Shown here one piece after another: positions 12,241 to 46,412 of a DNA stretch of 64,000 bases. Position 1 is the first letter of the stretch; every line of letters starts with the position of its first letter. The stretch is from positions 1,452,738 through 1,516,737 of the forward strand of contig CBDBHA010000002.1 in assembly GCA_965205495.1 (NCBI GenBank). Reading direction: 5' to 3'. The notes below the pieces were generated by a model. It had not been told where the DNA came from, searched no databases, and was given only the letters and a program-made list of their open reading frames with translations. Origin of the DNA: Dehalococcoidia bacterium. GTDB lineage: Bacteria > Chloroflexota > Dehalococcoidia > Lucifugimonadales > UBA3495. Position numbers and translations under genes: made by a program.

Positions 12241-13926
12241 TTAGAGGGACCAATCGTCGGGGAGTTCGGGGGTACGCATGGGCTTAATCATGACCTCGAC
12301 CAGGGCGGCCTGGCCGTCCTGGGTGGCCTGGATGGCGCGTTGGAAGGTGGGGACCAGTTCCTGGGGTTCCGACACCCGCTCGGAGTAGGCGCCGAGGCCC
12401 TGGGCCACCTGGCTGAAGTTGCCGCCCAGTTGGGCGACGGTGGGGGGAGTGCCGCCGGGGCGGTCCATGCCCATCATGCCGCCTCCGATGCCGCCGTTGT
12501 TGATAACGACGGTAAGGGTGGGGAGGCCCATGCGGACGGCGGTTTCGATTTCCATGCCGGTCATGCCGAAAGAGGCGTCGCCAAGAAGGTGAACCACAAG
12601 CTTGTCGGGATTGGCCAGTTTGGCTCCGATGGCCGCGCCCAGAGACCAACCCATGGGGGCCATCCCGCCCATTGCGACGAAGCTGTGGGGTGTTTTGGAG
12701 AGCCAGAAGGGAGTTATGTAACCCCGGCTGCCGCCGGCATCATGGAGGGCGACGGTACGGTCGAGGTCCACGGTGCGCATGAGGTCGTAGACCACCCGGT
12801 AGCCGTTGATCGGCGTGGAGTCGTCGGTAAAGACGGGCATCCACTCACCCAGCCACTTGTCCTTGGCCCGGGCGATTTCGTCAACGATTTCCTCTTTAAT
12901 ACCGCCGGCGTTGGGGCCCAGTCGGTCGCGGACGGCGTCGATGAGGTCATGGAGAGCCAGCTTGGCATCGGCCAGGATAGGGACATCGGCCTGGTACTGC
13001 TTGTTGAGGTCTTTTTCGTCGGCGTTGACGTGGATGAGCTTAACGCCTTCAGGGATGGGGCGACCGTCGGTGCCGTTGGGGAGGCGGAAGGAATTGCCCA
13101 CGGCGAGGACGGCGTCGGCGTGGCGGTTGATTTGGATGGCCGGTCCCGAAGCATAGCGGCTCCGGGGGTAGACACCGCCACCGAGGGAGAGGGGATGGTC
13201 TTCGGGGAAGATGCTCTTGCCCAGGAGGGTGGTGGCCACCGGCATGGAGAGCAGCTCGGCCAGCTCTCGGACCTCGTCGGCGGCCCCGGCGGACATGGCG
13301 CCGCCGCCAACGTTGAGGATGGGATATTGGGCCTGGACCAGGATGTCGGCGGCGCGCTCGATGTCGCGGGGATCGGGAGCGGCTTTGCGGCCTTCCCCGA
13401 CGGGTTGGTAGTTAAACACGGCGTCATCGGCTTCGGCGTTGAGCACATCCTGGGGCATTTCAAGGACCACCGGGCCAGGGGAGCCGGAACGGAGGGCGGT
13501 GAAGGCGCGGCGGATGATGCCTGGGATTTCGTCGGGGCGGGTGAAGGTCCCCTTCCACTTAACGAGGGTATCGAAGATGCTGGAGGAGACCTCTTGCTGG
13601 TACTCCTTGCCCAGGTTTCGGAGGGGGTGTTGGCCCATTAGAAGGAGGACCGGAACGTTATCGGCGAAGCAACTAGCAATGCCGGTAAGGGTATTGGTAG
13701 CGCCGGGGCCGGTGCCGGTCATGGCCACACCGACTTGGCCGGTGGCGCGGGAATAGCCGTCGGCGACCTCGACGCCGAGCCTTTCGTGGCGGGTGGCGAA
13801 GGCCGTGATGGTGGGGGATTCCCGAAGGGCGGGCCAGAGGGGAGCGAGGCCTCCTCCGGAGAAACCGGTGATGTACCTTATCCCTTCTTGTTCCAGAGCC
13901 CGGATTACCGCATCGCCGCCACGCAT
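12241..13926 (-). CDS. ThDP-dependent enzyme, acetolactate synthase large-subunit-like (paralog 1)
   Basis: Start refined to MRGGDAV (ATG 13926, AAGGTG 5 nt upstream). Three-domain ALS/POX architecture, with the ThDP motif GDASFGMTGMEIETAV...NNGG. Confidence 0.85.
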   Translation of the reverse strand: MRGGDAVIRALEQEGIRYITGFSGGGLAPLWPALRESPTITAFATRHERLGVEVADGYSRATGQVGVAMTGTGPGATNTLTGIASCFADNVPVLLLMGQHPLRNLGKEYQQEVSSSIFDTLVKWKGTFTRPDEIPGIIRRAFTALRSGSPGPVVLEMPQDVLNAEADDAVFNYQPVGEGRKAAPDPRDIERAADILVQAQYPILNVGGGAMSAGAADEVRELAELLSMPVATTLLGKSIFPEDHPLSLGGGVYPRSRYASGPAIQINRHADAVLAVGNSFRLPNGTDGRPIPEGVKLIHVNADEKDLNKQYQADVPILADAKLALHDLIDAVRDRLGPNAGGIKEEIVDEIARAKDKWLGEWMPVFTDDSTPINGYRVVYDLMRTVDLDRTVALHDAGGSRGYITPFWLSKTPHSFVAMGGMAPMGWSLGAAIGAKLANPDKLVVHLLGDASFGMTGMEIETAVRMGLPTLTVVINNGGIGGGMMGMDRPGGTPPTVAQLGGNFSQVAQGLGAYSERVSEPQELVPTFQRAIQATQDGQAALVEVMIKPMRTPELPDDWSL

Positions 13927-18249: not shown

Positions 18250-19968
18250 ATGCCCAAGGCCAACGAGTTGATAGTGCAGGCGCTGGAAGAAGCCGGGGTT
18301 GAGTACGTCTTTGGCATTCCCGGGGGTGGGACCGGCCAGATCTACAACCTGCTTTACGGGAAAGAAGACCGGATCAAGGCCATCCTGTGCCGCCACGAGC
18401 AGACGGCGGCGATTATGGCCGACGCCTACGCGCGAGCCACGGGAAAACCGGCGGTGGTCATGGGGCAGGGGTTGTTCATTGGGTCCAACGCCGCCTTCGG
18501 CATTATGGAGTCGATGCTGAGCAGCTCGCCGATGCTGGTTTTAACGGACACTTCGGACGGCGGAGCGGCGCAGCACCCGGCCAACCAATCGGGGGCCGGA
18601 GAGTACGGAAGCATCGACCTGCAAAGCATCTTCAAGGCGATGACCAAGTACACGACGTTGGCGACCAGTCCCAAGGAAGCCGTGCTGGGGACGCAGTTGG
18701 CGTTGAAACACGCTACTAGCGGCCGGCCGGGACCCGCGGCGGTGGTGATGCGGAGCGCGTCCATTGGGGGAGAGGTGGACCTGGAGTCGCCGCCTTTCAT
18801 CCATCCCACGGGCGGGTACCTGAACACGGCCAAGCCGCAGAGCGCGCCGCAGGATATTGAGCGGGCGGTGGAGATATTGTCGCAGTCGCGGCGGCCGGTT
18901 TTGGTGGCGGGGAACGGAGTGCATGTGTCGGGGGCCCACTCGCAATTGCAGGAACTGGCGGAACAGTGGAATATGCCGGTGGCAACGAGTTACAAAGGAA
19001 AGAGCGCCATCGCCGAGACCCATCCGCTGTCGCTGGGGATGGTTGGAATTTACGGGCAGACGGCGGCCAACCAGGTGGTGGGTGAAGCGGACACCGTGGT
19101 GATTGTGGGGGCCAAGTTGAGCCCGCAGGACACGGTTCGGGAGAGCCCCAATGTGTTCAACCCGAGGCAGCAGCACATTATTCAGATTGACATTGACGAC
19201 CGGAACGCGGGGTGGACCTTCCCGATAGAACTGGGATTGACCGGGGACGCCGGCAGCATCATGTCGCAGTTGATTGAAGCTTCGGGGGGCGCGGCGACGG
19301 GGTCGGCGGCCAACCGGCAAGAATGGGCGGCGGGGCTGGAACAGAAAAAGACGGACCGGTCCTTCTACAGCGACCCGGCATTGAGCTTGGACACATCTCC
19401 GGTGACGCCGCAGCGGTTGGTTGCAACGTTGCAAGAAACGCTGCCGGCGGACACGATTTTCTCGTTGGACGCGGGAAACAACCGGACCTGGATGGCGCAT
19501 TTCTACCAGGCGCAGGCCGCCAAGACCTTTTTCGCGCCAGGAGGCACGGCGGGAATGGGCTGGGGGCTGCCGGCGGCAGTGGGGTTGAAATTGGCCTACC
19601 CCAACCAGACGGTGTGCTCGGTTACCGGGGACGGGGGTTACATGATGACGGTAAACGCCCTCTCGACTGCGGTGCAGTACGACTTGCCCATTTTGTGCGT
19701 GGTGTTCAACGACAACGCGCTGGGAATGGTATTGGACCACCAGGAGCCGGGGCGGGAAATCGCTTCGGAGTTTGTGCAGACCGATAACGGAGCGGTGGCG
19801 CGGGGAATGGGGGCGTTTGGGATTCAGGTGAATGATTCACGGGACCTGCCCGACGCCATCGGGCAGGCGTTAGCGTCGGGACTGCCGGCGGTGGTGGACG
19901 TGATAGTGGACCGGGGGCCAAGCCCGGACGACTGGAGGGCGGACCTGCGGACGGCGGGAGAGACCTAA
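18250..19968 (+). CDS. ThDP-dependent enzyme, acetolactate synthase-like (paralog 2)
   Basis: 572 aa. N-terminal GIPGG...RHEQ-AAIMADAYAR and the C-terminal ThDP motif GDGGYMMTVNALSTAV...NDNALG. Confidence 0.85.
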   Translation: MPKANELIVQALEEAGVEYVFGIPGGGTGQIYNLLYGKEDRIKAILCRHEQTAAIMADAYARATGKPAVVMGQGLFIGSNAAFGIMESMLSSSPMLVLTDTSDGGAAQHPANQSGAGEYGSIDLQSIFKAMTKYTTLATSPKEAVLGTQLALKHATSGRPGPAAVVMRSASIGGEVDLESPPFIHPTGGYLNTAKPQSAPQDIERAVEILSQSRRPVLVAGNGVHVSGAHSQLQELAEQWNMPVATSYKGKSAIAETHPLSLGMVGIYGQTAANQVVGEADTVVIVGAKLSPQDTVRESPNVFNPRQQHIIQIDIDDRNAGWTFPIELGLTGDAGSIMSQLIEASGGAATGSAANRQEWAAGLEQKKTDRSFYSDPALSLDTSPVTPQRLVATLQETLPADTIFSLDAGNNRTWMAHFYQAQAAKTFFAPGGTAGMGWGLPAAVGLKLAYPNQTVCSVTGDGGYMMTVNALSTAVQYDLPILCVVFNDNALGMVLDHQEPGREIASEFVQTDNGAVARGMGAFGIQVNDSRDLPDAIGQALASGLPAVVDVIVDRGPSPDDWRADLRTAGET

Positions 19969-32779: not shown

Positions 32780-32935
32780 ATGCAAAAGAAACCAAGCCCA
32801 ATTCCTGCTCCCCAAGACCCCAGGGGTAAGGTAGAGGAACAGGAGTGCGAGATTTGCGGAGGACGGACGCTGGCCCGCCGCTGCAAGATTCAATGCCTCA
32901 ACTGCGGATATACCAGGGACTGTTCGGACCCTTAG
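32780..32935 (+). CDS. Candidate 51-aa zinc-ribbon protein
   Basis: Not in the ORF track (under 60 aa). It reads MQKKPSPIPAPQDPRGKVEEQECEICGGRTLARRCKIQCLNCGYTRDCSDP*, with six Cys including two CxxC pairs. It lies 87 nt downstream of the anti-sigma gene on the same strand. Confidence 0.4.
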   Translation: MQKKPSPIPAPQDPRGKVEEQECEICGGRTLARRCKIQCLNCGYTRDCSDP

Positions 32936-32981
32936 CAGGTTAGTCGACCCGCATTGCGTGCAGGCCGATCAAGGCCAGTTC

Positions 32982-33356
32982 TTAGTCACGTTCCAACCAG
33001 CCTCCGACACCGATTCCACCCATTATCACGCCGTCGGAAGAACGAACGACCACACCGCCAACGCCGGGGGTTAAGTTGGGGTCTCCGTAGTCGCTGACTG
33101 TGCGTCCCCGTTCCTTGAGCTGTTCGCCGTGGGGGCCGGTATCCATGCCCATGATGGCGTCGGTATAGGCTTTGCGGAAAGCGTGGCGGCGGGCGTAGAG
33201 ACGGACGTTGTCCATTTGGGCGTAAGCCACGGCATTGCCAGCGTCGTCTACCACGGAAATAGCCACGGGCATACCGCCGGGCTTGGTGACTTCATCGACA
33301 ATTGCGGCCATAGCCGCTTGAGCTTGGTCGAAGCAAATAAAGGGTTTTACCGCCAT
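32982..33356 (-). CDS. GlcG/HbpS-like (DUF336) heme-binding family protein
   Basis: Start refined to MAVKPF (GGAGGTG 6 nt upstream). GGGIGVGG-type C-terminal motif (GGIGVGG). Confidence 0.75.
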   Translation of the reverse strand: MAVKPFICFDQAQAAMAAIVDEVTKPGGMPVAISVVDDAGNAVAYAQMDNVRLYARRHAFRKAYTDAIMGMDTGPHGEQLKERGRTVSDYGDPNLTPGVGGVVVRSSDGVIMGGIGVGGWLERD

Positions 33357-33480
33357 GGGAACCACCTCCAATAGTGCTGGGGACATGATACAACAGGTCC
33401 AGTCAGCTCAGCCGGGAGCAGGAACGGGAAAGCGAGGCTCGTGAGAGGGGGGTTGTTGAGGTCCGGGCCGGGAAGATGCG

Positions 33481-34932
33481 CTAAAAATGGGGGAAGGGCC
33501 ACCAATCCGGGTAATCCCGGAGGCGGAGATGCCGAAAGAACTGGGGATGGACGCCGATGGCGAGCTTCATGGCTTCCAGGACAGGTTCGCGAATTGAGAA
33601 GTGGGCCAACGGGGAGGAGCGGAGTTTAAAGAGATGGTAACACTCGCGGAGGTTGATTTTTGCCAAGACACGGCGGTAGTGGGCGTGGGTCACCAGGTAT
33701 TGGGATACCAAGGGAGAAACCTGGAAAACCCTCCGGAAGCAGGCTTCCGCGGTTTCGAGAGCGCCGGTGAACTCGCCGGAAAGACCGGCCTCGGCGATGA
33801 GTGGAGGAACGCGATAATCCTGGGCGACGGTTAGGGCTTGGGGGAGGTAGGTCAACATGCGGTGGCGCTTAAACTCGCGGTAGGCCCCGTAGTCCATGGT
33901 GAACTCGAAGGTGTAATTGACCAGCTCGAACTCCCGGCCTGGAGAGTCGTGGGGCCCCAGCTCGGCGATGCAGCTATTGATTACCTCCGCCTGCTTCTCG
34001 GCTCCGAGGACCTGGGTTTGACGGAGGACGTAGGCGTAATCGAGATGGGAGGCGCGGTAGAGGAGGGCAGCGGCCAGCTTCTCCTGGGCGCAGGGGTCCC
34101 AGTCCAAGAGGCGGGCAGCGACCCGAAAGGGCTGGTTGGAGAGGGGTTGTCCGTCGGAGACGTGCTCGGCCGCTAGCTGGGTTTGCTGGTCGGCGGCGGA
34201 TTTGAAGAAAGGGTTTTCGTCGGCGTACTTGATGAGGGTTGGAGTAATTGTACGGCCCTGCGACCGCAGGTCGTTTCCCAGGTCCCGCTCCTCGGCTAAA
34301 GAGGAAGAGAGGAGCTTGGAAATTGCGTTTTCGAGCACGCGGGCGTTGGCTGTGACCCCGACGTTGGTTAGAGTTGCGGCGGGGAGGACGGCCCGGCAGT
34401 GATCGGTGACGATACGGCGGAGTCTCATTTGATAGACGGTGCCCCGCTCGTTGGGGCGTTGTTGGTGAACCGAGCGGAGATGGGACATAGAGCCGTCGAT
34501 GAGGCGTTGGTAGGTGTGGAACAGGGACTGGACGGCTTGATGGAACTCCTGGCCCAGGTAGCGGTGAGAGTCCAATTCTTGGGGGAAGTGGTAGTGGCCA
34601 CGGTCTATGATCTGGTAACGGGAAGATTTTTCGGTATAAGAGGCGAGGCGGTTATCCTCCAGAGCGTCGCAAGCCAGCCGGGAGACGTTTTCTACCGCCA
34701 GATGGACCACCGCATGTTCGGCGACCGAGGCGTGGCCGTAGCCGAGGACCCAGCGTTCATGGAAATCAGCGGCTTTTTCCTGGCTAACCTGTTCGGCGAT
34801 TTCATCGAAGGGTTTGGACCGCCGGGAGGTCATGGCGAAGGCGACGGCAATTTGCTCCTCGGTTAGCTTATGGGCATCGAGGGGATAGACCCGGCGTTGG
34901 GGCGGTGGGGAAAGGGTATCAAGACCGGTCAA
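33481..34932 (-). CDS. ThyX-like (FAD-dependent thymidylate synthase family) protein, double-length
   Basis: 483 aa. ThyX-type motifs are TEKSSRY and FKRHR. The size suggests tandem ThyX-fold domains. TTG start is uncertain. Confidence 0.6.
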   Translation of the reverse strand: MTGLDTLSPPPQRRVYPLDAHKLTEEQIAVAFAMTSRRSKPFDEIAEQVSQEKAADFHERWVLGYGHASVAEHAVVHLAVENVSRLACDALEDNRLASYTEKSSRYQIIDRGHYHFPQELDSHRYLGQEFHQAVQSLFHTYQRLIDGSMSHLRSVHQQRPNERGTVYQMRLRRIVTDHCRAVLPAATLTNVGVTANARVLENAISKLLSSSLAEERDLGNDLRSQGRTITPTLIKYADENPFFKSAADQQTQLAAEHVSDGQPLSNQPFRVAARLLDWDPCAQEKLAAALLYRASHLDYAYVLRQTQVLGAEKQAEVINSCIAELGPHDSPGREFELVNYTFEFTMDYGAYREFKRHRMLTYLPQALTVAQDYRVPPLIAEAGLSGEFTGALETAEACFRRVFQVSPLVSQYLVTHAHYRRVLAKINLRECYHLFKLRSSPLAHFSIREPVLEAMKLAIGVHPQFFRHLRLRDYPDWWPFPHF

Positions 34933-34962
34933 GCGGCGGCTCCCGGGACGGGATCGGCGGAA

Positions 34963-35751
34963 TCATGCAGGTTTCTTGGCGACCAGCATCAGCCATAGGT
35001 GGCGGAACATGAGGCGGTCGTTTTCCTGGAAGGGGTGCATTCCGGTGGGAGGGCCGCCGTCGAGTTCCTCTTGCAATTCTTCAGCGATCGCGACGCGGGC
35101 TTCGGCCGCGGTAGAAGTGAGGTCCATCCAGTCGTTGAGGGGGCGATGGGCGGCAAAGCGGTCGGAAAGGGAGATTTCGAGTCCGGCGGCTTGAACTAGG
35201 GCGAGCAACCCATCAGCGGTGAAGGCCGTGGTGTGGGACGGGTCACGGAGGCGTTCAAGGCGGTTGTGGGTTTCGGCGGCGGCGGGGTCGTCCGAGGTGG
35301 TTATGTCGATGAGGACGACGGAGCCGCCGGGCCGGCAAACCCGGACCATTTCCGACAGGTGCTGCGTGGGGTTCTCGAAATGGTGCATTCCCAGGCGGCA
35401 GGCGACCAGGTGGAAACTGTTGTCGGGATAGGGCAAATTGGCCGCGTCGCCGTGGTCGAAAGTCACGTTGGCATTGCCTTCAGCCTCAGACTGTTGGCGG
35501 CCCTGGGCCAGCATTTCAGGGGTGGCGTCGAGGGCGACAGCGTCGGCCACGCGGGGGGCCATTTGGCGCGCCACCAAGCCGGTACCGGCGGCGGCGTCCA
35601 GGACTCGGAAATGCGGCTGGAGGTCCAGATTCCCCATAATCCAGGCCTTGACCTCTTCGTTGCCGCCGGCGGTTAGATAGGACTCCCATTGGGGCGCCTG
35701 GCGGGAAAACTGCTCCTGGACCAATTCGTCGTGCGTTCTTTCAGATGCCAT
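34963..35751 (-). CDS. Class I SAM-dependent methyltransferase
   Basis: Motif I is VLDAAAGTGL, with a post-I acidic residue and PGGSVVLID. ATG 35751 chosen; the alternative is TTG 35781. Confidence 0.8.
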   Translation of the reverse strand: MASERTHDELVQEQFSRQAPQWESYLTAGGNEEVKAWIMGNLDLQPHFRVLDAAAGTGLVARQMAPRVADAVALDATPEMLAQGRQQSEAEGNANVTFDHGDAANLPYPDNSFHLVACRLGMHHFENPTQHLSEMVRVCRPGGSVVLIDITTSDDPAAAETHNRLERLRDPSHTTAFTADGLLALVQAAGLEISLSDRFAAHRPLNDWMDLTSTAAEARVAIAEELQEELDGGPPTGMHPFQENDRLMFRHLWLMLVAKKPA

Positions 35752-35789
35752 TTCGGTTACATTCCCGATGGGATACCCCAAGACTTGGG

Positions 35790-37427
35790 TTAGACCAGCG
35801 CGCCGAAGCCGTTGGGGATTTGAACTTCAATTAGCTGGACCCGGTCGGCGGCCACCGCTTGTTCCAGGGCGTTGGAGAGTTGGGCGACGCTGCTAACACG
35901 GGTGCCTTCAACGCCGTAAGAATCGAAGAGTTTTATGAAGTCGGGGTTGACCAAGTCGGTACCCATATGACGCTCGTTAAACCGGGCGCTTTGATAACCC
36001 TTCAGGACACCCCAGGCGTTGTCATTGAACATGAGGACGATGGGGTTGATGCCGTATTGGACGGCGGTGCCCAATTCCTGGGCATTATACTGGAACCCGC
36101 CGTCGCCGGTAATGCAGACGACCGGGTTTTTGGGTTTCCCAACCTTGGCTCCCAAGGCGGAAGGAAAGCCGAAGCCCAAGCCGGCCCAACCCCAGGGGTA
36201 CATGAAGCGGCGGGGGCCGTCGATGTTGAGGCAACGGGCGGCGCGGCTGGCTGGGACGGTGGCATCGAGGGTGAAAATGGTCTCATCCGGAGTAGCGGCG
36301 CGGATGGCTTCGAAGGCACGTAGTTCATTGCCCCAGGTGTCTTGGAGGACTTGATAAGTCTGTTGTTTAAGGGCAGAAACTTCCTGCCGGTAGGCCGGGC
36401 CTTTGTCGACATCCCGGTTGCCGATGGCGTCGAGAAGTTGGGATACCACGGCCCGGGAGTTAGCGACGATGGGAACATCGGCGGGGTAGTTCTTGCCGAT
36501 GTAGTCCTGGTCAAGGATGACGTGAATGACCTTTTCCGGGAGCTTCAAATCGACGCCGACCGTGGAACGGTAGGCCAGAGCGGAACCGAGGACGAGAGCG
36601 GCGTCGCAGGTGCCAACCCAGTCCTGGACCGGGTTTTCTCCCCAGATGCGGCGTCCCAAAGCCGGGCCCAGTGACAGGGGGTGGCTTTCGGGGAAGGCGC
36701 CCTTAGCGCCGTCGGTGGTGACCACCGGGGCTCCCAAGCGTTCGGCCAGTTCCACCACCTGCTGTGAACCGCCTTGGGACTGGACTTCTTCGCCGACGAT
36801 GATGATGGGGCGTTTGGCCTGGAGCAGGGTTTCCAGGGCCCGTTGGACCATGACCGGGTCTCCCTGGGGAATTGTTGGGTCCCGAGGGCGGAGGACCTCG
36901 ACATCGGCTTGCTCGCCCAAGAGATCGGTAGCTAACTCCAGCTCGATGGGGCGGGGACGGCGTTCCTGAAACCTCTGGAAAGCTTCGACGAAGTGGTCGG
37001 GAATGGACTCAACTTGGTCGATGCGGGCGTTCCAGTCAGTGACGGCCTGGAACATACCCAACTGGTCTTTGGTCTCGTGGGTCGCCAGGCGGCCCGAGCC
37101 GATGAACTCCTGCTCGACGTTGGTGGTTACCTGGAGGATGGACGAGCTGGAGAAGTAGGCTTCGCCCATAGCGCCCATGGAATCGGCGGCGCCGGGGCCG
37201 GTGCTGGTCAAAAGGATTCCGGGCTTGCCAGTTGCGCGAGAGTACCCGTCGGCCATGAAACCGCAGCCCAACTCGAGGCGGCCGCCGATGAAGCGGACCT
37301 GGTCCTGTTGGTCGAAAAGGGCATCGAAGAGGTCCAGGGTGTGGACGGAAATGATACCGAAGACAGTATCGACGTCCTGGGCTTTCAGGGACTCGACGAT
37401 GGCTTGGCCGCCGGTCATTCGGGGCAT
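35790..37427 (-). CDS. ThDP-dependent enzyme, acetolactate synthase/benzoylformate decarboxylase-like (paralog 3)
   Basis: AGGAGGT lies 5 nt before the ATG. 545 aa, with three-domain architecture and the ThDP motif GDGGFQYNAQELGTAV...NDNAWG. Confidence 0.85.
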   Translation of the reverse strand: MPRMTGGQAIVESLKAQDVDTVFGIISVHTLDLFDALFDQQDQVRFIGGRLELGCGFMADGYSRATGKPGILLTSTGPGAADSMGAMGEAYFSSSSILQVTTNVEQEFIGSGRLATHETKDQLGMFQAVTDWNARIDQVESIPDHFVEAFQRFQERRPRPIELELATDLLGEQADVEVLRPRDPTIPQGDPVMVQRALETLLQAKRPIIIVGEEVQSQGGSQQVVELAERLGAPVVTTDGAKGAFPESHPLSLGPALGRRIWGENPVQDWVGTCDAALVLGSALAYRSTVGVDLKLPEKVIHVILDQDYIGKNYPADVPIVANSRAVVSQLLDAIGNRDVDKGPAYRQEVSALKQQTYQVLQDTWGNELRAFEAIRAATPDETIFTLDATVPASRAARCLNIDGPRRFMYPWGWAGLGFGFPSALGAKVGKPKNPVVCITGDGGFQYNAQELGTAVQYGINPIVLMFNDNAWGVLKGYQSARFNERHMGTDLVNPDFIKLFDSYGVEGTRVSSVAQLSNALEQAVAADRVQLIEVQIPNGFGALV

Positions 37428-37482
37428 GGGTTACCTCCTGGTTAGATGGGATTGACGGAGCCGGACTTCACGTTCCGGCCGG

Positions 37483-38859
37483 TTAGAGCAACAGGGTTAA
37501 GGGGTTTTCCAGGATATGTTTGACCTCGACGAGGAAGCGGGCGGCTTCCGCGCCGTCGGCTACCCGGTGGTCGGTGGAAAGGGTGGCCTTCATCATTTGA
37601 GCGACGGCTAGTTGCCCTTCCCGGACGACAGCCTGTTCCTGAACTGCGCCGACAGCCAAAACCGCGGCATGGGGCGGATAAATGATGGCGGCGAAACTTT
37701 CGATTTCAAACATGCCCAGGTTGCTTACGCTAAAGGTGGTGCCTCCGTATTCGTCGTTGCGGAGGTGGCCGGCGTTGGCGCGTTCGATGAGGTCCTTGGA
37801 AGCAGCGGCGATTTGGAGGAGGGACTTGTCCTGGCAATCGCTGATGCCGGGTACCATGAGGCCGGCTTCCAGGGCGATGGCGACGCCAATGTTGACGGCG
37901 GAGTGGAAGTGGAGAGAATCGGCCTGGAAAGAGGCGTTGAACTTGGGATGTTTAGCGAGGGCCAGGGCGGCGGATTTAACCACGAGGTCGTTGACGGTGA
38001 CCCGGGTCCCTTCGGGAGCGGCTTCGTTGATTTCGCGGCGGAGGGTCATGGCGCGGGTCATATCTATAGCGGCGGTGACGTAGAAGTGGGGGGCTTCGCG
38101 TTTACTGTCAGAGGTGACGCGGGCAATGGCCTGACGCATCCGGGACAGTTCGACGGCTTCGGCACCGAGTTGGGCAAGCGGTTCCGGGGTGGGTTCGGGT
38201 TCGGGAGCGGGCGGGGTGTATTCCAGGATGTCTTTTTCGACGATGCGGCCGCCGGGGCCAGAGCCGGTTACGGCGGCGAGGTTGATGCCACGTTCCCGGG
38301 CGAGACGGCGGGCGATGGGGGAGGCGAGAATCCGGCCATCTTGGAGTTCAGGAGCCGCCACCGGGGGAGCGGGGGTGTATTCCAAGACGTCTTTTTCGAC
38401 GATGCGGCCGCCGGGGCCAGAGCCGGTGAGGTCGGCCAAATTTACGCCGCGTTCCCGGGCCAGGCGGCGGGCAATTGGGGAAACGCGGAGGCGTCCGTCT
38501 TCGGACCCATCCGCAACCGGGGCGGGCGTCTCCGGGGCAGCGGTTGGAGCAACACCAGGGGCGGGAGGTTCGGCGGCGGTTGGGGTGGCGGCGTCTAGGA
38601 GGTTGTCCGGGAGGGGTTCGCCGGGCGCGGTGATAACGGCGATAAGCTCGCCAACGGGAACAACCACTCCGGCGTCGGCGACGATTTTACCCAAGACCCC
38701 GCCGGTGTAGGCTTCGAACTCCACCGTGGCTTTGTCGGTTTCAATGTCGGCGAGGACCTCGCCCCGGGCGATGGTGTCACCTTCTTGCTTGTGCCAGCGG
38801 ACGACTGTGCCTTCGCGCATGTCGTATCCCATCTGGGGCATTACGATGTTGGTCGCCAT
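37483..38859 (-). CDS. Dihydrolipoamide acyltransferase (E2) with one lipoyl domain and two tandem peripheral-subunit-binding domains
   Basis: Lipoyl motif IETDKATVEF. Two PSBD copies (SPIARRLARERG-NLA...GSGPGGRIVEKD-LEY). Catalytic C-terminus with the DHRVADG motif. Confidence 0.9.
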   Translation of the reverse strand: MATNIVMPQMGYDMREGTVVRWHKQEGDTIARGEVLADIETDKATVEFEAYTGGVLGKIVADAGVVVPVGELIAVITAPGEPLPDNLLDAATPTAAEPPAPGVAPTAAPETPAPVADGSEDGRLRVSPIARRLARERGVNLADLTGSGPGGRIVEKDVLEYTPAPPVAAPELQDGRILASPIARRLARERGINLAAVTGSGPGGRIVEKDILEYTPPAPEPEPTPEPLAQLGAEAVELSRMRQAIARVTSDSKREAPHFYVTAAIDMTRAMTLRREINEAAPEGTRVTVNDLVVKSAALALAKHPKFNASFQADSLHFHSAVNIGVAIALEAGLMVPGISDCQDKSLLQIAAASKDLIERANAGHLRNDEYGGTTFSVSNLGMFEIESFAAIIYPPHAAVLAVGAVQEQAVVREGQLAVAQMMKATLSTDHRVADGAEAARFLVEVKHILENPLTLLL

Positions 38860-38942
38860 GGTGGCCTCCCCGAAGGATTTGTCGAACGGAGGAAGGGGTT
38901 AACTGGGGTCCCGATGGTTGATGATAAGAACTAACGCCATTG

Positions 38943-40340
38943 CTAACCGTGGATAGCCCGGCCCTGGGCGCCCAGGGCTGCTTCTTTCAACATTTCGGAG
39001 ATGGTGGGGTGGGCGTGGACGGCCCAACCCAGCTCCAGGGAGGTGCCTTCCAGAAGGCGGGTCAACGAAAGCTCACCCAGGAGTTCGGTAACTTCCGGGC
39101 CGATGAGGTGGCCGCCGAGGAGTTCACCGTAGCGGGCATCGAGGACGAGTTTAACCATGCCTTCGGTCTCGCCCATCGCCATGGCCTTGCCGTTGGCCAA
39201 GACATTGAATCGGCCCACCTGGACCTGGTAGCCCTGATCTATGGCCTGGGCCTCGGTGAGTCCGAAGCTGGCGACCTGGGGCTGGCAGTAGGTGGCCTTG
39301 GGCATATAGGTGTAGTCGAGGGGTTGGGTCTCGTTGCCCGCGATATGCTCGGCGGCGGTCACGGCCTGGGCCGAGGCGGCATGGGCCAGGGCGAGTTTGC
39401 CGGTGACGTCGCCGACGGCGTATAGACCTGGAATGTTGGCAGCCATGGCGTCGTTGACCTGGATGTAGCCGCCCTGAGTTTGAACTCCCAGCGATTCCAA
39501 CCCGAGGTCCTCGGCATTGGGTTGGACGCCGATGGCTACCAGCACCTGGGCGCAGTCGATAGTCTTGGCGGCGCCATCCTGGTCGATGTTGACGGTGACG
39601 CCGCTGGGGGACTGCTGGACACCGGTAACGGCCGCGCCGGTGACCACGTTGATGCCGTGTTTTGAAAAGGACCGTTCCAATTGTTGGCTGATTTCCTCGT
39701 CCTCATTGGGTACCAGGCGAGGCAGAAGCTCCACCACGCTAACTTCGACGCCGTACATGCGGTAGATGTAGGCGAACTCGACGCCGATGGCCCCACCGCC
39801 AACAATGACAATAGACTGGGGCAGTTCTTTGCCGACGATGGCCTGGCGGCTGGTGATGATTTGGGCACCGTCCACAGGAAGGGGGGGAATGGTGCGGGGG
39901 CGCGCGCCGGTGGCTATGATGATGTTCTTGGCGGTAATGACCTGGCCATCGGGAGCGATTTCCACCTGACCGTTACCGCGGAGAGTAGCGGTGCCGGTGA
40001 GATGGGTAACGTTGTTTTTGCGAAGGAGGTAGGCGACGCCGCGAATGTTGCGGTCGACGACCCGGCGGCTGCGGTCGATGGCTACGGAGTAATCGGCGTG
40101 GAAATTATCGAAATGGAAACCGAACTCTTGAGAACGGTGGATATAGGAAAGGATTTCAGCGTTTTTGAGGAGGGCCTTACTGGGGATGCAGCCCCAATTG
40201 AGGCAGACACCACCCAGGCTTTCCCGCTCGACGATGGCGGTGTTCAGTCCCAACTGAGCGGAGCGGATGGCGGCGACGTAACCGCCGGGGCCGGCGCCGA
40301 TGACGGCTACATCGTATGTGGAGTTGGTTGTCATTATCAA
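38943..40340 (-). CDS. lpdA: Dihydrolipoyl dehydrogenase (E3)
   Basis: FAD motif GAGPGGY, redox disulfide GGVCLNWGCIPSK, and a C-terminal HAHPT interface motif. Confidence 0.9.
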   Translation of the reverse strand: MIMTTNSTYDVAVIGAGPGGYVAAIRSAQLGLNTAIVERESLGGVCLNWGCIPSKALLKNAEILSYIHRSQEFGFHFDNFHADYSVAIDRSRRVVDRNIRGVAYLLRKNNVTHLTGTATLRGNGQVEIAPDGQVITAKNIIIATGARPRTIPPLPVDGAQIITSRQAIVGKELPQSIVIVGGGAIGVEFAYIYRMYGVEVSVVELLPRLVPNEDEEISQQLERSFSKHGINVVTGAAVTGVQQSPSGVTVNIDQDGAAKTIDCAQVLVAIGVQPNAEDLGLESLGVQTQGGYIQVNDAMAANIPGLYAVGDVTGKLALAHAASAQAVTAAEHIAGNETQPLDYTYMPKATYCQPQVASFGLTEAQAIDQGYQVQVGRFNVLANGKAMAMGETEGMVKLVLDARYGELLGGHLIGPEVTELLGELSLTRLLEGTSLELGWAVHAHPTISEMLKEAALGAQGRAIHG

Positions 40341-40565
40341 AGATTACAGAGCGTGGGTCGGTTAAGGCTTGGTACGCGGTGGCAATTATACAAGGGGGGT
40401 TGTGTGTCCACAATGTTGGAGGAACGGCGTAATGGTCCGGTTGGTTCGGGGTGGTCCGGGCTGGGGCCTCGGCGGAATGGCGGTTGCCGGTAGGGGGTGC
40501 GGTTTGTTGGCGAATGGGGATTTTGGTATGATTGCGGCTGGCGAACTCGACTAAATGAGGTTGTT

Positions 40566-40784
40566 ATGAGATTCGGGCCGTTGGGAATCACCGAGGTTCT
40601 CATCATCTTGGCGGTGTTGTTGCTCATCTTTGGGGCGCGGCGGTTGCCGGAAATTGGGTCGTCCTTGGGGCGGGGAATCCGTTCCTTCAAGACTTCGGTG
40701 ACCGGGGAAGACGAGGTTGAGACCAAGTCCGAGGAAGAGCAGCGGCCGGTGAACGCGGGGCGAAACAACGATGACCTAGTCTAA
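40566..40784 (+). CDS. tatA: Twin-arginine translocase protein TatA/E
   Basis: Start refined to ATG 40566 (TGAGG 5 nt upstream). It reads MRFGPLGITEVLIILAVLLLIFGARRLPE followed by an amphipathic helix. Confidence 0.85.
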   Translation: MRFGPLGITEVLIILAVLLLIFGARRLPEIGSSLGRGIRSFKTSVTGEDEVETKSEEEQRPVNAGRNNDDLV

Positions 40785-40836
40785 AGACGGACTTATAACG
40801 GGCTTTTGGCCCCGGGCACAATAGGCTTGGAATGAT

Positions 40837-40870
40837 GAAAAGGCCGGCGCAGGTACGCCGGCCTTTTTCT
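40837..40870. terminator. Bidirectional intrinsic terminator
   Basis: AAAAGGCCGGCG-caggta-CGCCGGCCTTTTT, between the convergent tatA(+) and tatC(-). Confidence 0.85.
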
Positions 40871-40885
40871 TTGCCAATGAGGGGG

Positions 40886-41653
40886 TCATTCGGAGTTGGG
40901 GGCCGGGGAGGGGGAGTCGGAAGGAGTTGGGCCGCGCCGTCCGGCGAGGCGGGCCAAGAGAATGCCTAATTCGTAGAGGACCAAGAGGGGCAGGGCCACC
41001 AGCACCTGGTTGACCGGGTCGAAGGTGGGGGTGATGACGGCGGCGATGATAAAAGCGATGACCAGCCAAAAGCGCCGGAAGCGGGAGAAGGCCCGCGCGG
41101 GAACAATGCCAAGGCGGGCCAGCAGCACCATGACCAGAGGGGTTTCGAACACGACGCCCATCCAAAAAAGGAACCGGAGCATCACATCGACGTAACTGCT
41201 AATGCGAATCAAGGGTTCCGCAACGTTGTCGCTGAAGGATATGAGGAAAGGGAGGGCCTGGGGGGTGAGGATGTAATAACCGAAGGCGATGCCGCCGGCG
41301 AAGGCGAGCACAGCGCCTGGGATGAAGAGGAGCAAGTAGCGCTTTTCCTGGCCGGTAAGGCCGGGGGCGACGAACCGGACCACCTGGTAGAGAATCACCG
41401 GAAAGGCGAGGATGAGGCCGCCGAAGAGGGAGACTTTGAAGCTGGTGGTGAGGGACTCGGTGACCTGGGTGGCGATTAGGGTGACCCCTTGGCCGTCGTT
41501 AAGCTCCTGGGCCGGGCGTTTGAGGAGCTCGACGGCGTCCTCCCAGAAGGCGAACGCCACGCAGGTACCGAGGACGAGGGCGATGACGCAAATAAGGAGG
41601 CGGCGCCTGAGCTCCTGCAGGTGCTCTCTAAGGGAAAGCTGGTGGTCATTCAT
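40886..41653 (-). CDS. tatC: Twin-arginine translocase subunit TatC
   Basis: 255 aa. LREHLQELRRRL N-terminus and six TM segments, typical of TatC. Confidence 0.9.
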   Translation of the reverse strand: MNDHQLSLREHLQELRRRLLICVIALVLGTCVAFAFWEDAVELLKRPAQELNDGQGVTLIATQVTESLTTSFKVSLFGGLILAFPVILYQVVRFVAPGLTGQEKRYLLLFIPGAVLAFAGGIAFGYYILTPQALPFLISFSDNVAEPLIRISSYVDVMLRFLFWMGVVFETPLVMVLLARLGIVPARAFSRFRRFWLVIAFIIAAVITPTFDPVNQVLVALPLLVLYELGILLARLAGRRGPTPSDSPSPAPNSE

Positions 41654-41655
41654 GG

Positions 41656-41898
41656 TTAGCTTTGGGGAGGGGGCCCTTCTCGGGGAGGTGGGGAGCCGGA
41701 GGCGGGCGGGCGGGGTTGAGGCGGCCGGTCGTCGTCCAAGTTAACGGCGGAAGTAATTTCGTTAATGGCACGGCGGATGTCGCGGACCATCCGCCCGGTG
41801 GTGCGGGCCATGTCGATGGAGCGGTTGGGGCCCAGAGCGAGGAAAGCCACGACCATGATGACCGCAATTTCGGGGAGGCCGATGCCGAAAAGGTTCAC
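41656..41898 (-). CDS. TatA/TatB-family translocase component
   Basis: The GTG start at 41898 overlaps the TGA stop of the upstream rlmD-maf ORF (GTGA). It reads (M)NLFGIGLPEIAVIMVVAFLALGP followed by an amphipathic, Pro-rich tail. An alternative ATG is at 41925. Confidence 0.75.
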   Translation of the reverse strand: MNLFGIGLPEIAVIMVVAFLALGPNRSIDMARTTGRMVRDIRRAINEITSAVNLDDDRPPQPRPPASGSPPPREGPPPQS

Positions 41899-43733
41899 CG
41901 GCGGGGCTTCCCTTGAAAGGGACATTCGGTCTGGCATTGGGGTTGGTTGGGGACGACCCAGTCCGGGAGAAGGGCGCAGCCCAACTCGGCGAGCATTTCG
42001 CGGACGCGGCACACCGGGAGGCCCACCACGTTGGTGAAGCAGCCATCGGTCAGCTTGCCGGGTTTGAGATCGGGGTCCTGGATGGCATAGGCGCCTGCCT
42101 TGTCCAAGGGAGTACCGGCATTGACGGAGGCCTGGATTTCCTCGTCGCTCAAGTCCCGCAACTCGATGTCTCCGGTCAGGCAATCGGTAAGGCTGCGGCC
42201 GGTGGCGGCGTCGATGACGGTAACACCGGTGCTCACCTGGTGTTGGGTTCCGCGCAGGGTCTGGAGCATTTTTACGGCGTCCGCGGAGTCAACGGGTTTG
42301 CCGACGGGCCGGTCTTGAAAGACCACGGTGCTGTCGGCGCCGATGACGTATCCTTCAGTCAGAGTAGAAGCGATGGCCTGGGCCTTGGCCTGGGAGAGAC
42401 GCCGGACCATATCCTGGGCGGGCTCGCCGGGGATGACGGACTCATCCACGTTGGCCGGGATTACCTGGAACTGGAAGCCCGCCTGGGCCAGAAGGTCGTT
42501 CCGGCGGGGGGATGCCGAGGCCAGGACGACCTGGGGCGGCGGCTGAGTTCGTTCGAGGACCGCGACGGACTCGACGTGGTGAGTCTGGGGGAACATATCC
42601 AGGGGGTGCACGGCGGTCAACCGGTAAGGGCCCTGGCAGAGGAGCTTCAAATCGCGCCCCAGGGTTTCCGGGTCGCACGACACGTAGACCACGCGGGGCG
42701 GGGCGAGGCGCAGGAGGCTGGCGAGAGCGGAGGGCTGGCAGCCGGCACGGGGCGGGTCCAGGAGAACAATGTCGGGTTTTTCTGCGACGGAACCAAGAAC
42801 ATCTTCGGTCTTGCCCAAGAGGAATTCAACGTTGTCGAGGCCGGCGGCGTTTTTCCGGGCGTCGGCGACGGCGGCGGCGGACTCCTCGATAGCGATTACC
42901 CGGCGGACGTAGGGAGCGAGGAGGATAGCGAAGGTACCAACTCCGGTGTAGGCGTCGAGCAGGAGGTCGGTGGATTGGATGGCCAACTCGCGGCGGACCG
43001 TCTCGATAAGGTTGGAGGTCTGTTGGATATTGACTTGAAAGAAAGAAGGGGAGGCGACCCGAAAGGTGCGGCGGTTGACGGATTCCACGTAGTGTTTTTG
43101 GCCGGTGGGAACGGTGACCGCAGGGGACTTCAGGGTTGGCTGCACCAAGAAATCGCCAGTTTCTTCGCCGGCGCGGATGGACAACTGGGTGGTCTCGGCG
43201 CAGTTGTCCTGCAACTGGGCCAAGAGATTGTTGACCCCTGGGTGCATCAACATGCAGTCATCGACCTGAACAAAGCGGCGGGTCTCGCGGTTGACGAAAC
43301 CGAGAGCGCCCTGAGGGCCGATGGTCATCCGGGCGTGGTTACGGTAGCGAAACTGGCGGGGCGAGGGTTGGACGGGAGACACTGCCGGGTCTGGGAAACC
43401 GCCGACGCGCCGGAGGGCGTCGACGACCTTCTCCCGTTTTACGTCAAGTTGGTAATCGTAGGCGACATGCTGCCATTGGCAACCGGTGCATTCGCCGTAG
43501 TAAGGACAGGGGGGTTGGATACGGTGGGGAGAAGGTTCGAGGACTTCGACCACGCGGGCGGAGAGGTGGTTGCGGTAGACGCGAAGGACTTCGGCGACGA
43601 CCTTTTCGCCGGGGATACCGCCAAAGACAAAGACGTCCCAATCTTGGTATTGGGCCCAGGCCTCGCCCAAGCGACCCCAGGACATCAAAGAGAGGGATAG
43701 TAGCTGGCCTTTCAGGATGCGCTGGTCTAACAA
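41895..43733 (-). CDS. Fusion protein: 23S rRNA (uracil-5)-methyltransferase RlmD/RumA-like + Maf nucleoside-triphosphate pyrophosphatase
   Basis: One uninterrupted frame. The RumA part has TRAM-like VFVFGGIPGEKV, the Fe-S Cys set C-x6-C-x2-C plus DDC, SAM motif DAYTGVG and catalytic VYVSCDP, ending HVESVAVLER. A TQPPPQ linker precedes Maf (VVLASASPRR ... GAYAIQ). Start set to TTG 43733 after AGGAGG; the track ORF extends to 43865. Confidence 0.8.
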   Translation of the reverse strand: MLDQRILKGQLLSLSLMSWGRLGEAWAQYQDWDVFVFGGIPGEKVVAEVLRVYRNHLSARVVEVLEPSPHRIQPPCPYYGECTGCQWQHVAYDYQLDVKREKVVDALRRVGGFPDPAVSPVQPSPRQFRYRNHARMTIGPQGALGFVNRETRRFVQVDDCMLMHPGVNNLLAQLQDNCAETTQLSIRAGEETGDFLVQPTLKSPAVTVPTGQKHYVESVNRRTFRVASPSFFQVNIQQTSNLIETVRRELAIQSTDLLLDAYTGVGTFAILLAPYVRRVIAIEESAAAVADARKNAAGLDNVEFLLGKTEDVLGSVAEKPDIVLLDPPRAGCQPSALASLLRLAPPRVVYVSCDPETLGRDLKLLCQGPYRLTAVHPLDMFPQTHHVESVAVLERTQPPPQVVLASASPRRNDLLAQAGFQFQVIPANVDESVIPGEPAQDMVRRLSQAKAQAIASTLTEGYVIGADSTVVFQDRPVGKPVDSADAVKMLQTLRGTQHQVSTGVTVIDAATGRSLTDCLTGDIELRDLSDEEIQASVNAGTPLDKAGAYAIQDPDLKPGKLTDGCFTNVVGLPVCRVREMLAELGCALLPDWVVPNQPQCQTECPFQGKPRR

Positions 43734-43931
43734 AGGTCCTCCTGGAGATACTATAGACCAAGGCAGGGGCGAATCCAAGGGAGGTCCAAGGGAGGATGGA
43801 AGGGGACGGGGGCGGGTGGTTAGGGTTAGTGTTGACCTGTTGGTAGCGCCGGTATAATATGGCAACAGAACCCCTCTGAACGGCGGGGCGCGGGCAAAAC
43901 GGCGTCCTGCACTAATGACCTTGGAGGCAAA

Positions 43932-44774: not shown

Positions 44775-46412
44775 TTAGAACTGGGAGCGGCGGGCTTCCA
44801 GGTTGGAGTGGATGTCCAACAGGACGGTGCGGCCTTCCGAGTTGAGTTGGCGAGCGCGTTCCAAAGCCGGAGCGATTTCGCCGGGCTGTGTGACGGTAAT
44901 GCCCACCGCGCCCATACCCTCGGCGATCTTGGCGTAGTCGCCGGTCATGCGGGTGGCGCCGTAAAGCTCGTTGGCTACGGGGTAGCCGCCGGGGTAGGTG
45001 GCCATGCCGCCGTTGTTGAGTACGATGGTGGTGATGGGGGCGCCGGCCCGCACCGAGGTCTCAATGTCCAGGCCGGACATTCCGAACGCGCCGTCGCCCA
45101 TGAAGTTGAGGCAGAACTTGTCCGGTTGGGCCAATTTGGCGCCGATCATCAGGGGGATGCCGTAGCCAAGGTGGGTGGTCTTGCCCCAGCCGATGTAGCT
45201 GTGGGGAATGGTGGCGCGGAAGAAGGGCATGATGGTGTCGCGGGGAGCGCCGGCATCGTGGGTGACGATGGAGTTTTCCTTGTCGATGTTGCGTTCCATC
45301 TCGCCAATGACCCGGTAGGTATTGATGGGAACGTCTTCGGAGTGGAGGATGTCGTGCCACTCGCCCATCCAGGCATCGCGCATGTTGGCAATTTCCTGGG
45401 CGACGGCGGTCTGACCCTTCCGGCCTTTTCCGCCGATTTGAGCCTTGACCTCATCGACCAAGGCGGCGAGGGTGAGTTTAGCGTCACCCGGAAGCCCGAC
45501 GTCCACCGAGAAATCCTTGTTTATGTCCTCGATGGTCTCGACGTTGTGGATGATGACCTTACCGCCTGGGATGGGTTGGCCGTAGCCGGTGCGGGTCATG
45601 CTGGAACCGACGGCAAAGAGAACGTCAGACTCCTGGAGCCAGGTCCGGGCGGGTAAGGAGGTCGAGGCGCTGCCGGAACCGAGGGCCAAGGGGTGGCGTT
45701 CGTCAAAGGAGGACTTGCCGGGCATGGTGCAGTAGACCGGAATCTCGGTCAGTTCGGCCAACTCGGTAAGTTCCGGGGAGGCTTCGGCGAAAAGGACACC
45801 CATACCGGACCAGATTACGGGTTTTTTGGCGTTGAGAAGGAGCGCGGCGGCGTCCTTAACGTCGCTGGGGGCGGGGCCTTGGGGGGCACGCTTGGGGGGC
45901 TGGTAGTTGAGGTCGGCTTCGTTGACCTCCATGGTTCCGACGTCGGCCGGGATTTCAACGATGACCGGGCCTGGGCGGCCGTTGCGGAGGGCGTGGAAGG
46001 CCCGGCGCATGACGGCGGAGACCTGTTGCGGCTGAGTGATGACCTCGCCGCACTTGGAAACGGTGGCGTAGGTGCGGGTGGGGGAGAAGTTGGGTTTCAC
46101 GGCGTATTGGCTGAGGGCGGGGCCGCCGGGGAGGTAGAGGATGGGGATGTTGTCACTGTAAGCCTGGGCCAAGCCGCCCATGGAGTTTTCAGAACCGGGG
46201 CCGCCCTGGGTGATGGTTACGCCAAACTTCTTGCGGTTATGGAGGCGGGAGTAGCCATCGGCGGCCATGAGGGCACCGCGTTCCTGCCGGAACATGATGG
46301 TGCGGATGCCTTCCTTGGCGGCGGCTTCGATGAGTTGATTAGAGGGGAAACAGGAGACCCATTCCACGCCTTCAGTCTTCAAGATTCGGGCGACGGCTTC
46401 CATTACATTCAT
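44775..46412 (-). CDS. ThDP-dependent enzyme, acetolactate synthase-like (paralog 4)
   Basis: Start set to MNVMEAVARIL (ATG 46412). The upstream part of track ORF 44775..46526 is not family-like. The ThDP motif is GDGAFGMSGLDIETSV...NNGG. The start is uncertain (weak RBS). Confidence 0.8.
   Translation of the reverse strand: MNVMEAVARILKTEGVEWVSCFPSNQLIEAAAKEGIRTIMFRQERGALMAADGYSRLHNRKKFGVTITQGGPGSENSMGGLAQAYSDNIPILYLPGGPALSQYAVKPNFSPTRTYATVSKCGEVITQPQQVSAVMRRAFHALRNGRPGPVIVEIPADVGTMEVNEADLNYQPPKRAPQGPAPSDVKDAAALLLNAKKPVIWSGMGVLFAEASPELTELAELTEIPVYCTMPGKSSFDERHPLALGSGSASTSLPARTWLQESDVLFAVGSSMTRTGYGQPIPGGKVIIHNVETIEDINKDFSVDVGLPGDAKLTLAALVDEVKAQIGGKGRKGQTAVAQEIANMRDAWMGEWHDILHSEDVPINTYRVIGEMERNIDKENSIVTHDAGAPRDTIMPFFRATIPHSYIGWGKTTHLGYGIPLMIGAKLAQPDKFCLNFMGDGAFGMSGLDIETSVRAGAPITTIVLNNGGMATYPGGYPVANELYGATRMTGDYAKIAEGMGAVGITVTQPGEIAPALERARQLNSEGRTVLLDIHSNLEARRSQF

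Follow-up and report, generated by a model that had tools for sequence, protein, structure and literature searches.

Pyruvate dehydrogenase (PDH) complexes of the alphaproteobacterial and mitochondrial type have a heterotetrameric E1 (TIGR03182 and PRK09212), an acetyltransferase E2 (TIGR01349) and a dihydrolipoyl dehydrogenase E3 (TIGR01350). In Corynebacterium glutamicum, a PDH/2-oxoglutarate dehydrogenase (ODH) supercomplex contains one lipoylated E2, AceF, which is used by both AceE and OdhA (PMC10415282). The acetolactate synthase (ALS)/pyruvate oxidase (POX) superfamily of thiamine diphosphate (ThDP) enzymes is represented by IlvB (TIGR00118) and BbmA (PDB 8x3x/8xod). Here we analysed a 64,000-nucleotide stretch (hereafter the window; C2:1452738-1516737) of a 3.82-Mb SAR202-type Dehalococcoidia genome in two contigs (G000), in which the genes for E3 (lpd) and E2 are directly followed by a gene for an ALS/POX-type ThDP enzyme. 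An earlier reading of the letters alone (the sequence-only reading) had proposed either that E1 is encoded elsewhere or that the ThDP enzyme and E2 form a non-canonical complex. Comparison with related genomes favoured the first proposal and not the second: lpd-E2 is probably the remnant of an ordinary PDH operon whose E1 was lost in cis and is served in trans, with the ThDP gene a long-standing neighbour.

The locus shares with the alphaproteobacterial/mitochondrial PDH the architecture of E2 including the DHRxxDG motif, and its lpd likewise has the redox disulfide and the His-Glu dyad; relatives of the genome even hold the full lpd-pdhA-pdhB-E2 operon, with E1alpha above the equivalog cut-off. 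Unlike that system, the window has no E1 in cis, lpd comes first, and its E2 carries two peripheral subunit-binding domains (PSBDs) and scores under the TIGR01349 cut-off. The likeness to C. glutamicum is that E1s outnumber E2 genes and that lpd is single, sharing being read here from gene counts alone, whereas the E1s are all of alpha/beta heterotetramer types and an OdhA-like fusion is absent. With IlvB and BbmA, the ThDP enzyme has in common the three-domain fold family, the activating Glu and the GDG-X24-ND motif; it differs from IlvB in its score (340 vs 538 bits) and in having no adjoining small subunit, and its identity to BbmA is about 30%.

RESULTS

The lpd and E2 genes

The features that bear on this comparison are the following (window coordinates):

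38943..40340, minus strand: lpd, dihydrolipoyl dehydrogenase (E3; TIGR01350, 548.7 bits vs cut-off 408.8)
37483..38859, minus strand: E2, likely a PDH-type dihydrolipoyllysine acetyltransferase, with a lipoyl domain, two PSBDs and a catalytic domain (Pfam, TIGR01349)
38209..38499, minus strand: two near-identical tandem PSBDs in E2 (translation and a purpose-built PSBD hidden Markov model)
37428..37482, minus strand: E2-ThDP intergenic spacer, with an AGGAGG ribosome-binding site 6 nt before the ATG
35790..37427, minus strand: ALS/POX-superfamily ThDP enzyme of 545 amino acids, not IlvB (TPP_enzyme_N, M and C)

The product of lpd scores above the TIGR01350 cut-off and has both the redox CxxxxC motif (CLNWGC at residue 46) and the C-terminal HPxxSE motif (HPTISE at residue 444) of a dihydrolipoyl dehydrogenase. 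It is the sole intact copy and the single TIGR01350 match over the cut-off in the genome, and is therefore necessarily common to both E2s of the genome. A second lpd-like locus (C2:1167016-1168354; L014:1501-2839, minus strand) is interrupted by three in-frame stops, all of them TAG, in an open reading frame (ORF) that is otherwise well conserved, with zero frameshifts in the 286 residues read; this locus is either a pseudogene or an indication of something odd about TAG.

In E2, we found a lipoyl domain (PF00364, 1.6e-16) with ETDKA at residues 40-44, a PSBD (PF02817) in two stretches that are near-identical copies, and a catalytic domain (PF00198, 5.7e-78) with DHRVADG. The best NCBIfam model was TIGR01349 with 416.3 bits, which does not reach the equivalog cut-off of 445; going by this best-scoring model below its cut-off, E2 is likely of the PDH acetyltransferase subtype.

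The slot between lpd and E2

Synteny was compared in 24 genomes of the family, in 80 loci from species-representative genomes whose ThDP orthologs are at least 70% identical, and across the 301 genomes of the order. The loci with close ThDP orthologs belong to uncultured Dehalococcoidia, Chloroflexota and 'SAR202 cluster' metagenome-assembled genomes, many from seawater or sponges. The content of the position between lpd and E2 (the slot) could be read in 75 of the 80 loci: 38 have E1alpha and E1beta, 30 have a two-subunit 2-oxoacid:ferredoxin oxidoreductase (OFOR), and 7 are empty. The empty-slot set, consisting of these 7 loci and the window, includes the window's genus. E1alpha and E1beta also occupy the slot in G008, G011, G023, G039 and G029, the E1alpha of G008 being a member of TIGR03182 (414 bits vs cut-off 394). 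Since the order lpd-E1alpha-E1beta-E2 is found in the family and also in other families (G039, G029, and loci of families f14 and f36), the canonical lpd-pdhA-pdhB-E2 operon is likely the ancestral state, with the position of E1 before E2. The ThDP gene, located after E2, therefore does not occupy the place of E1.

As for the OFOR, that in the slot of G016 (L060:4044-6788) comprises an alpha subunit (TIGR03710, 593 bits) and a beta subunit (TIGR02177, 331 bits), and an OFOR lies exactly between lpd and E2 in about 30 other loci (e.g. L077-L090). The window's own genome has an OFOR ortholog outside the slot, at C2:1717477 (75% identity).

E1 genes in trans

All E1_dh/Transket_pyr matches of the genome (C2:506-509 kb, 1295-1297 kb, 2981-2984 kb and 2172 kb) fall outside the window, so that the absence of E1 noticed in the sequence-only reading holds. 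Searching the whole genome, and counting E2 and E3 genes along with E1, gave three E1 alpha/beta pairs (A, C2:506337-508930; B, C2:2981343-2984076; C, C2:1294718-1296781), two genes for E2 and a single intact lpd; the genome yielded no AceE-type E1. The second E2 is SucB-like and adjoins pair B, and pairs A and C are orphans without an adjoining E2: pair A is surrounded by gatB, an S-adenosylmethionine (SAM) hydroxide adenosyltransferase gene and a DNA methylase gene, and pair C is next to a luciferase-like monooxygenase gene and an acyl-CoA-dehydrogenase-like gene. Pairs A and C had their highest scores with the PDH 'y' model, the class of the window E2, and pair B with the 'x' model. None of the three is a close ortholog of the slot E1 of the relatives (36-43% identity).

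Pair A scored 361 bits with TIGR03182 and 342 bits with PRK09212 (cut-off 321). It lies about 980 kb from the window E2 and is 77-94% identical in 23 of the 24 family genomes, a conservation exceeding that of E2 itself, and it is recognisable order-wide. Every genome examined keeps at least one E1 alpha/beta pair. Between E1alpha and E1beta of pair A there is also a 97-residue DUF2283 ORF (L006:9382-9675, corresponding to C2:507381-507674).

Three genomes of family f24 (G100, G233 and G279; 95-96% complete, 1-2 contigs) have the same lpd-E2-ThDP layout with an empty slot as the window, and E1_dh and 2-oxoacid_dh each gave exactly one match per genome. This sole E1, located about 130-145 kb from E2, is orthologous to pair A (62% identity for alpha and 71% for beta, against at most 47% for the other pairs). 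Since f24 has one E1 type and one E2 type, the A-type E1 and this E2 would, by elimination, form a set, and gene content makes pair A most likely the physical partner of the window E2. Thus the proposal that E1 is encoded elsewhere is supported by two orphan pairs, of which one is conserved in the family, and by the A-type E1 being the only one in f24.

In the arrangement that we consider probable, lpd and E2 would be the E3 and E2 of a conventional PDH-like complex of the mitochondrial/alphaproteobacterial type ('y'). They would derive from an ancestral lpd-pdhA-pdhB-E2 operon, both E1 genes between lpd and E2 having been lost in this lineage, and the E2 core would be served in trans, most likely by orphan pair A and possibly by the second orphan pair C as well. 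The ThDP gene would be a long-standing neighbour in a collinear block, encoding a separate enzyme outside the complex.

The tandem PSBDs and sharing of E2

Among the E2s of the family, a single PSBD was found in 41 of 41 with E1 in cis, and two PSBDs in 28 of 31 with an OFOR in the slot and in 9 of 11 with an empty slot, including three from genomes without the ThDP gene. Since two PSBDs occur also without the ThDP gene, PSBD number does not follow this gene; the sequence-only reading was right in seeing two tandem binding domains in E2, but copy number does not track the ThDP gene. We also considered, and rejected, a tie between PSBD number and the state of the slot (41/41 vs 37/42 in the family); it comes down to 1-3 independent contrasts and fails outside the family, where the f24 E2s (empty slot and ThDP gene) have one PSBD and an f14 E2 with E1 in cis has two. 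The duplication is treated here as lineage-specific variation, and is not claimed as slot-linked.

A related possibility, which we regard as tentative and rather unlikely, is that the E2 core is a platform for several E1s (A and C here, the slot E1 and A in relatives), with a docking capacity increased by the duplicated PSBD. Three E1 pairs stand against two E2 genes, the two orphan pairs share the 'y' type with the window E2, and in G008, G011 and G039 a slot E1 and pair A occur alongside a single y-type E2; the two E1 activities on one lipoylated E2 in C. glutamicum (PMC10415282) provide a precedent. However, the few independent contrasts in PSBD number and their breakdown outside the family speak against a docking role of the duplication, and pair C is located in a catabolic cluster, and could work with the other E2 of the genome.

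The ThDP gene as a neighbour of E2

The genes described above belong to a collinear block consisting of RlmD-Maf, TatC, lpd, the slot, E2, ThDP, in some loci a methyltransferase, and ThyX, which exceeds the PDH operon. Its other members in the window are:

40886..43865, minus strand: TatC and an RlmD-Maf fusion, the upstream end of the conserved collinear block (Pfam)
34963..35781, minus strand: class I SAM methyltransferase (UbiE/MenG-like), an accessory insertion (Pfam Methyltransf_11/25)
33481..34932, minus strand: ThyX-like protein with two Thy1 domains, a conserved backbone member (PF02511, 2 stretches)

In most related loci, within the family and beyond, lpd is preceded by TatC and RlmD-Maf, and the methyltransferase gene lies between ThDP and ThyX in just 18 of the 80 loci. 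The conserved adjacency of E2 and ThDP belongs to this more extended collinear stretch of unrelated housekeeping genes. The RlmD-Maf gene is a 656-residue ORF (41895-43865, minus strand) in which an RlmD/RumA-type m5U methyltransferase is fused to a Maf domain, and most relatives carry the fusion ahead of TatC and lpd. The ThyX-like protein has 483 residues and scores 81.2, just under the thyX equivalog cut-off of 87.9; its gene follows E2 or ThDP in nearly all related loci, also in those that have no ThDP gene, and this position is retained throughout the order.

ThDP orthologs (62-89% identity) are present in 19 of the 24 family genomes, with E2 directly upstream in all 19. The five genomes without a ThDP ortholog (G012, G018, G019, G020 and G023) keep the order lpd-[slot]-E2-ThyX, the slot being empty also in G012, G018 and G019, and their E2s have DHRxxDG in 5/5 and the lipoyl-lysine pattern in 4/5 (no match in G023). 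Since an intact E2 persists in these genomes, E2 can do without the ThDP gene. In 38 of the 80 loci, the ThDP gene co-occurs with a canonical cis E1. E2 and ThDP are 23-1442 nt apart (median 89 nt); in about ten loci, a DNA methylase (N6_N4_Mtase) and a 214-residue ORF are inserted there (L091:8615-9987 and about nine others), and in G039 an aldo/keto reductase (AKR) is. Across the order, the ThDP orthogroup was found in 48 of 301 genomes. Its members lie away from E2 in families f51, f41, f61 and f59, surrounded by unrelated genes at the loci inspected, which were from f51, f41 and f61, and in f33 and f19 the ThDP ortholog keeps only ThyX as a neighbour, with E2 not adjoining.

Several points weigh against the arrangement that we prefer. 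The adjacency of E2 and ThDP holds in 80 of 80 loci, which is far wider than expected for a chance neighbour, and, with identities as low as 42%, it extends to families f14, f16, f24, f36 and f42. Most gaps are short and, from lpd to ThyX, the minus strand has no predicted terminator, so co-transcription of E2 and ThDP with some functional coupling is possible. Related genomes, moreover, are non-independent observations, and the 361 bits of pair A lie under the TIGR03182 equivalog cut-off of 394, leaving its substrate uncertain. The sequence-only reading had named an orphan E1 pair elsewhere together with non-conserved synteny as findings that would speak against a ThDP-E2 complex; the orphan pair was found, but the synteny is conserved, E2-ThDP adjacency being wide in the order.

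An alternative is a functional but indirect link, in which the ThDP enzyme would be expressed together with E2/E3 and act at the pyruvate node or another 2-oxoacid node as a second enzyme, for example an overflow carboligase/decarboxylase, without contact with the complex. The deep co-orientation with mostly short gaps and no predicted minus-strand terminator fits such a role, as do the invariant catalytic Glu52 and GDG...ND cofactor motif and the fact that the closest solved relatives, BbmA and acetohydroxyacid synthase (AHAS), are carboligases. We nevertheless consider this improbable: the block also keeps TatC, RlmD-Maf and ThyX, which are metabolically unlinked, and therefore collinearity alone explains the adjacency. 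Moreover, restriction-modification-like or AKR genes separate E2 from ThDP in some genomes, the ortholog is away from E2 in f51, f41, f61 and f59, and it stands beside ThyX without E2 in f33 and f19.

The idea of the sequence-only reading that the ThDP enzyme itself loads the lipoyl arm, i.e. that it is a surrogate E1 that decarboxylates a 2-oxoacid, passes the acyl group reductively to the lipoyl arm of the neighbouring E2 and docks on one of its PSBDs, is very improbable. It would account for a window without E1 in which the ThDP gene directly follows E2 after 55 nt with its own ribosome-binding site, for the adjacency in all close orthologs and five other families, and for the two PSBDs of the window E2. 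However, where a canonical E1 is present in cis, it holds a different position from the ThDP gene, and the 38 loci with both have E2s with one PSBD; empty-slot E2s without the ThDP gene still have two, and the f24 and f14 E2s show the reverse of the expected numbers. An intact E2 is retained without the ThDP gene, inserted cassettes part the two genes in some loci, and at least one E1 alpha/beta pair is kept in every genome examined. The 545-residue protein is made up of the three standard domains and lacks any additional docking module, and ThDP orthologs are not extra-diverged in empty-slot lineages. No ALS/POX-family enzyme is known to take a lipoyl domain as acceptor, which weighs against this idea as well. 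It is likewise highly improbable that the conserved E2-ThDP adjacency stems from a physical or kinetic partnership in which the ALS-like enzyme takes the lipoyl arm of E2, or else the E3 of the complex, as acceptor alongside a canonical E1, so that SAR202 would have a hybrid complex into which two unrelated ThDP enzymes feed.

The ThDP enzyme

The ThDP enzyme contains TPP_enzyme_N, M and C only; it is not among the PF00676 or PF02779 matches of the genome and has neither E1_dh nor the transketolase-like pyrimidine and C-terminal domains by which an E1 binds the PSBD. Its three domains, catalytic Glu and GDG...N(N/D) motif are those of the ALS/POX ThDP superfamily, Glu52 and GDG441-X24-N468-D469 being invariant in 12 ThDP orthologs. 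All NCBIfam models remained under their cut-offs (best PRK08266, 421 vs 571, with PRK07064 and PRK07524 also among the best). Assignment as IlvB was rejected: TIGR00118 gave 339.8 bits (cut-off 538.35), which ranks 8 among the paralogs of the genome, a small subunit does not adjoin, and the true ilvB (743.7 bits)-ilvN pair is located at C2:850336-852509. The closest solved relatives are BbmA (1e-63 to 1e-78) and AHAS (about 1e-54 to 1e-68), at about 30% identity.

The ThDP enzyme is the best conserved gene product of the block, and empty-slot lineages show no extra divergence; from this high conservation and the invariant catalytic residues, it would therefore be an active enzyme under strong constraint. 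It is most likely a free-standing 2-oxoacid decarboxylase/carboligase, a chemistry that we infer from sequence. An AlphaFold2 model based on a 12-sequence alignment was poor (predicted local distance difference test 64, predicted template modelling score 0.61). A large protein search with the ThDP enzyme returned only SAR202 orthologs, unnamed or automatically named, and literature searches on BbmA and on SAR202 with acetolactate synthase or PDH yielded nothing usable.

The genome has 17 full-length ALS-family paralogs, four of them in the window. The other three in the window lie at 12283-13926 (minus strand), 18259-19914 (plus strand) and 44805-46403 (minus strand), and relatives have 13-32 ALS-family matches each. 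No description of such a paralog expansion was found in the SAR202 literature searched.

Junctions between the genes

The minus-strand string lpd-E2-ThDP-methyltransferase-ThyX-like was recovered exactly as the sequence-only reading had drawn it, in ORFs as well as in gaps: reading of the intergenic sequences gave 83 nt for lpd/E2, 55 nt for E2/ThDP and 30 nt for methyltransferase/ThyX-like, and the distance from the ThDP stop to the methyltransferase gene is 8 nt with a TTG start or 38 nt with the ATG at 35751. Transcription of the ThDP gene probably runs in the direction of E2, and the two genes may be co-transcribed. From lpd to the HbpS-like gene, the minus strand has no predicted terminator-like site, promoter-like matches at the locus were at chance level only, the hairpin in the E2-ThDP spacer was no more stable than shuffled sequences (z = -0.5), and an Rfam search of 32800-41000 matched zero families. 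GC skew on the plus strand is strongly positive (+0.12 to +0.30) throughout the window (1-64000), the studied string being on the minus strand.

DISCUSSION

Gene content, orthology, synteny and intact motifs, as read directly from the genomes, are what this comparison is built on. Overall, we regard the locus as an ordinary arrangement of PDH E2 and E3 with an E1 in trans and an ALS-family neighbour, of modest evolutionary interest. In this abundant ocean lineage, which is uncultured, a PDH operon that seems to lack E1 would be explained by relocation and loss of genes together with an orphan E1, requiring no new chemistry. For the annotation of SAR202 genomes, this would suggest a rule by which orphan pdhAB genes are assigned to the lpd-E2 locus. 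The slot between lpd and E2, which holds E1alpha and E1beta, a 2-oxoacid:ferredoxin oxidoreductase or nothing, is an evolutionary curiosity, and the strongly conserved ALS-family paralog downstream of E2 would be a sensible target for biochemistry.

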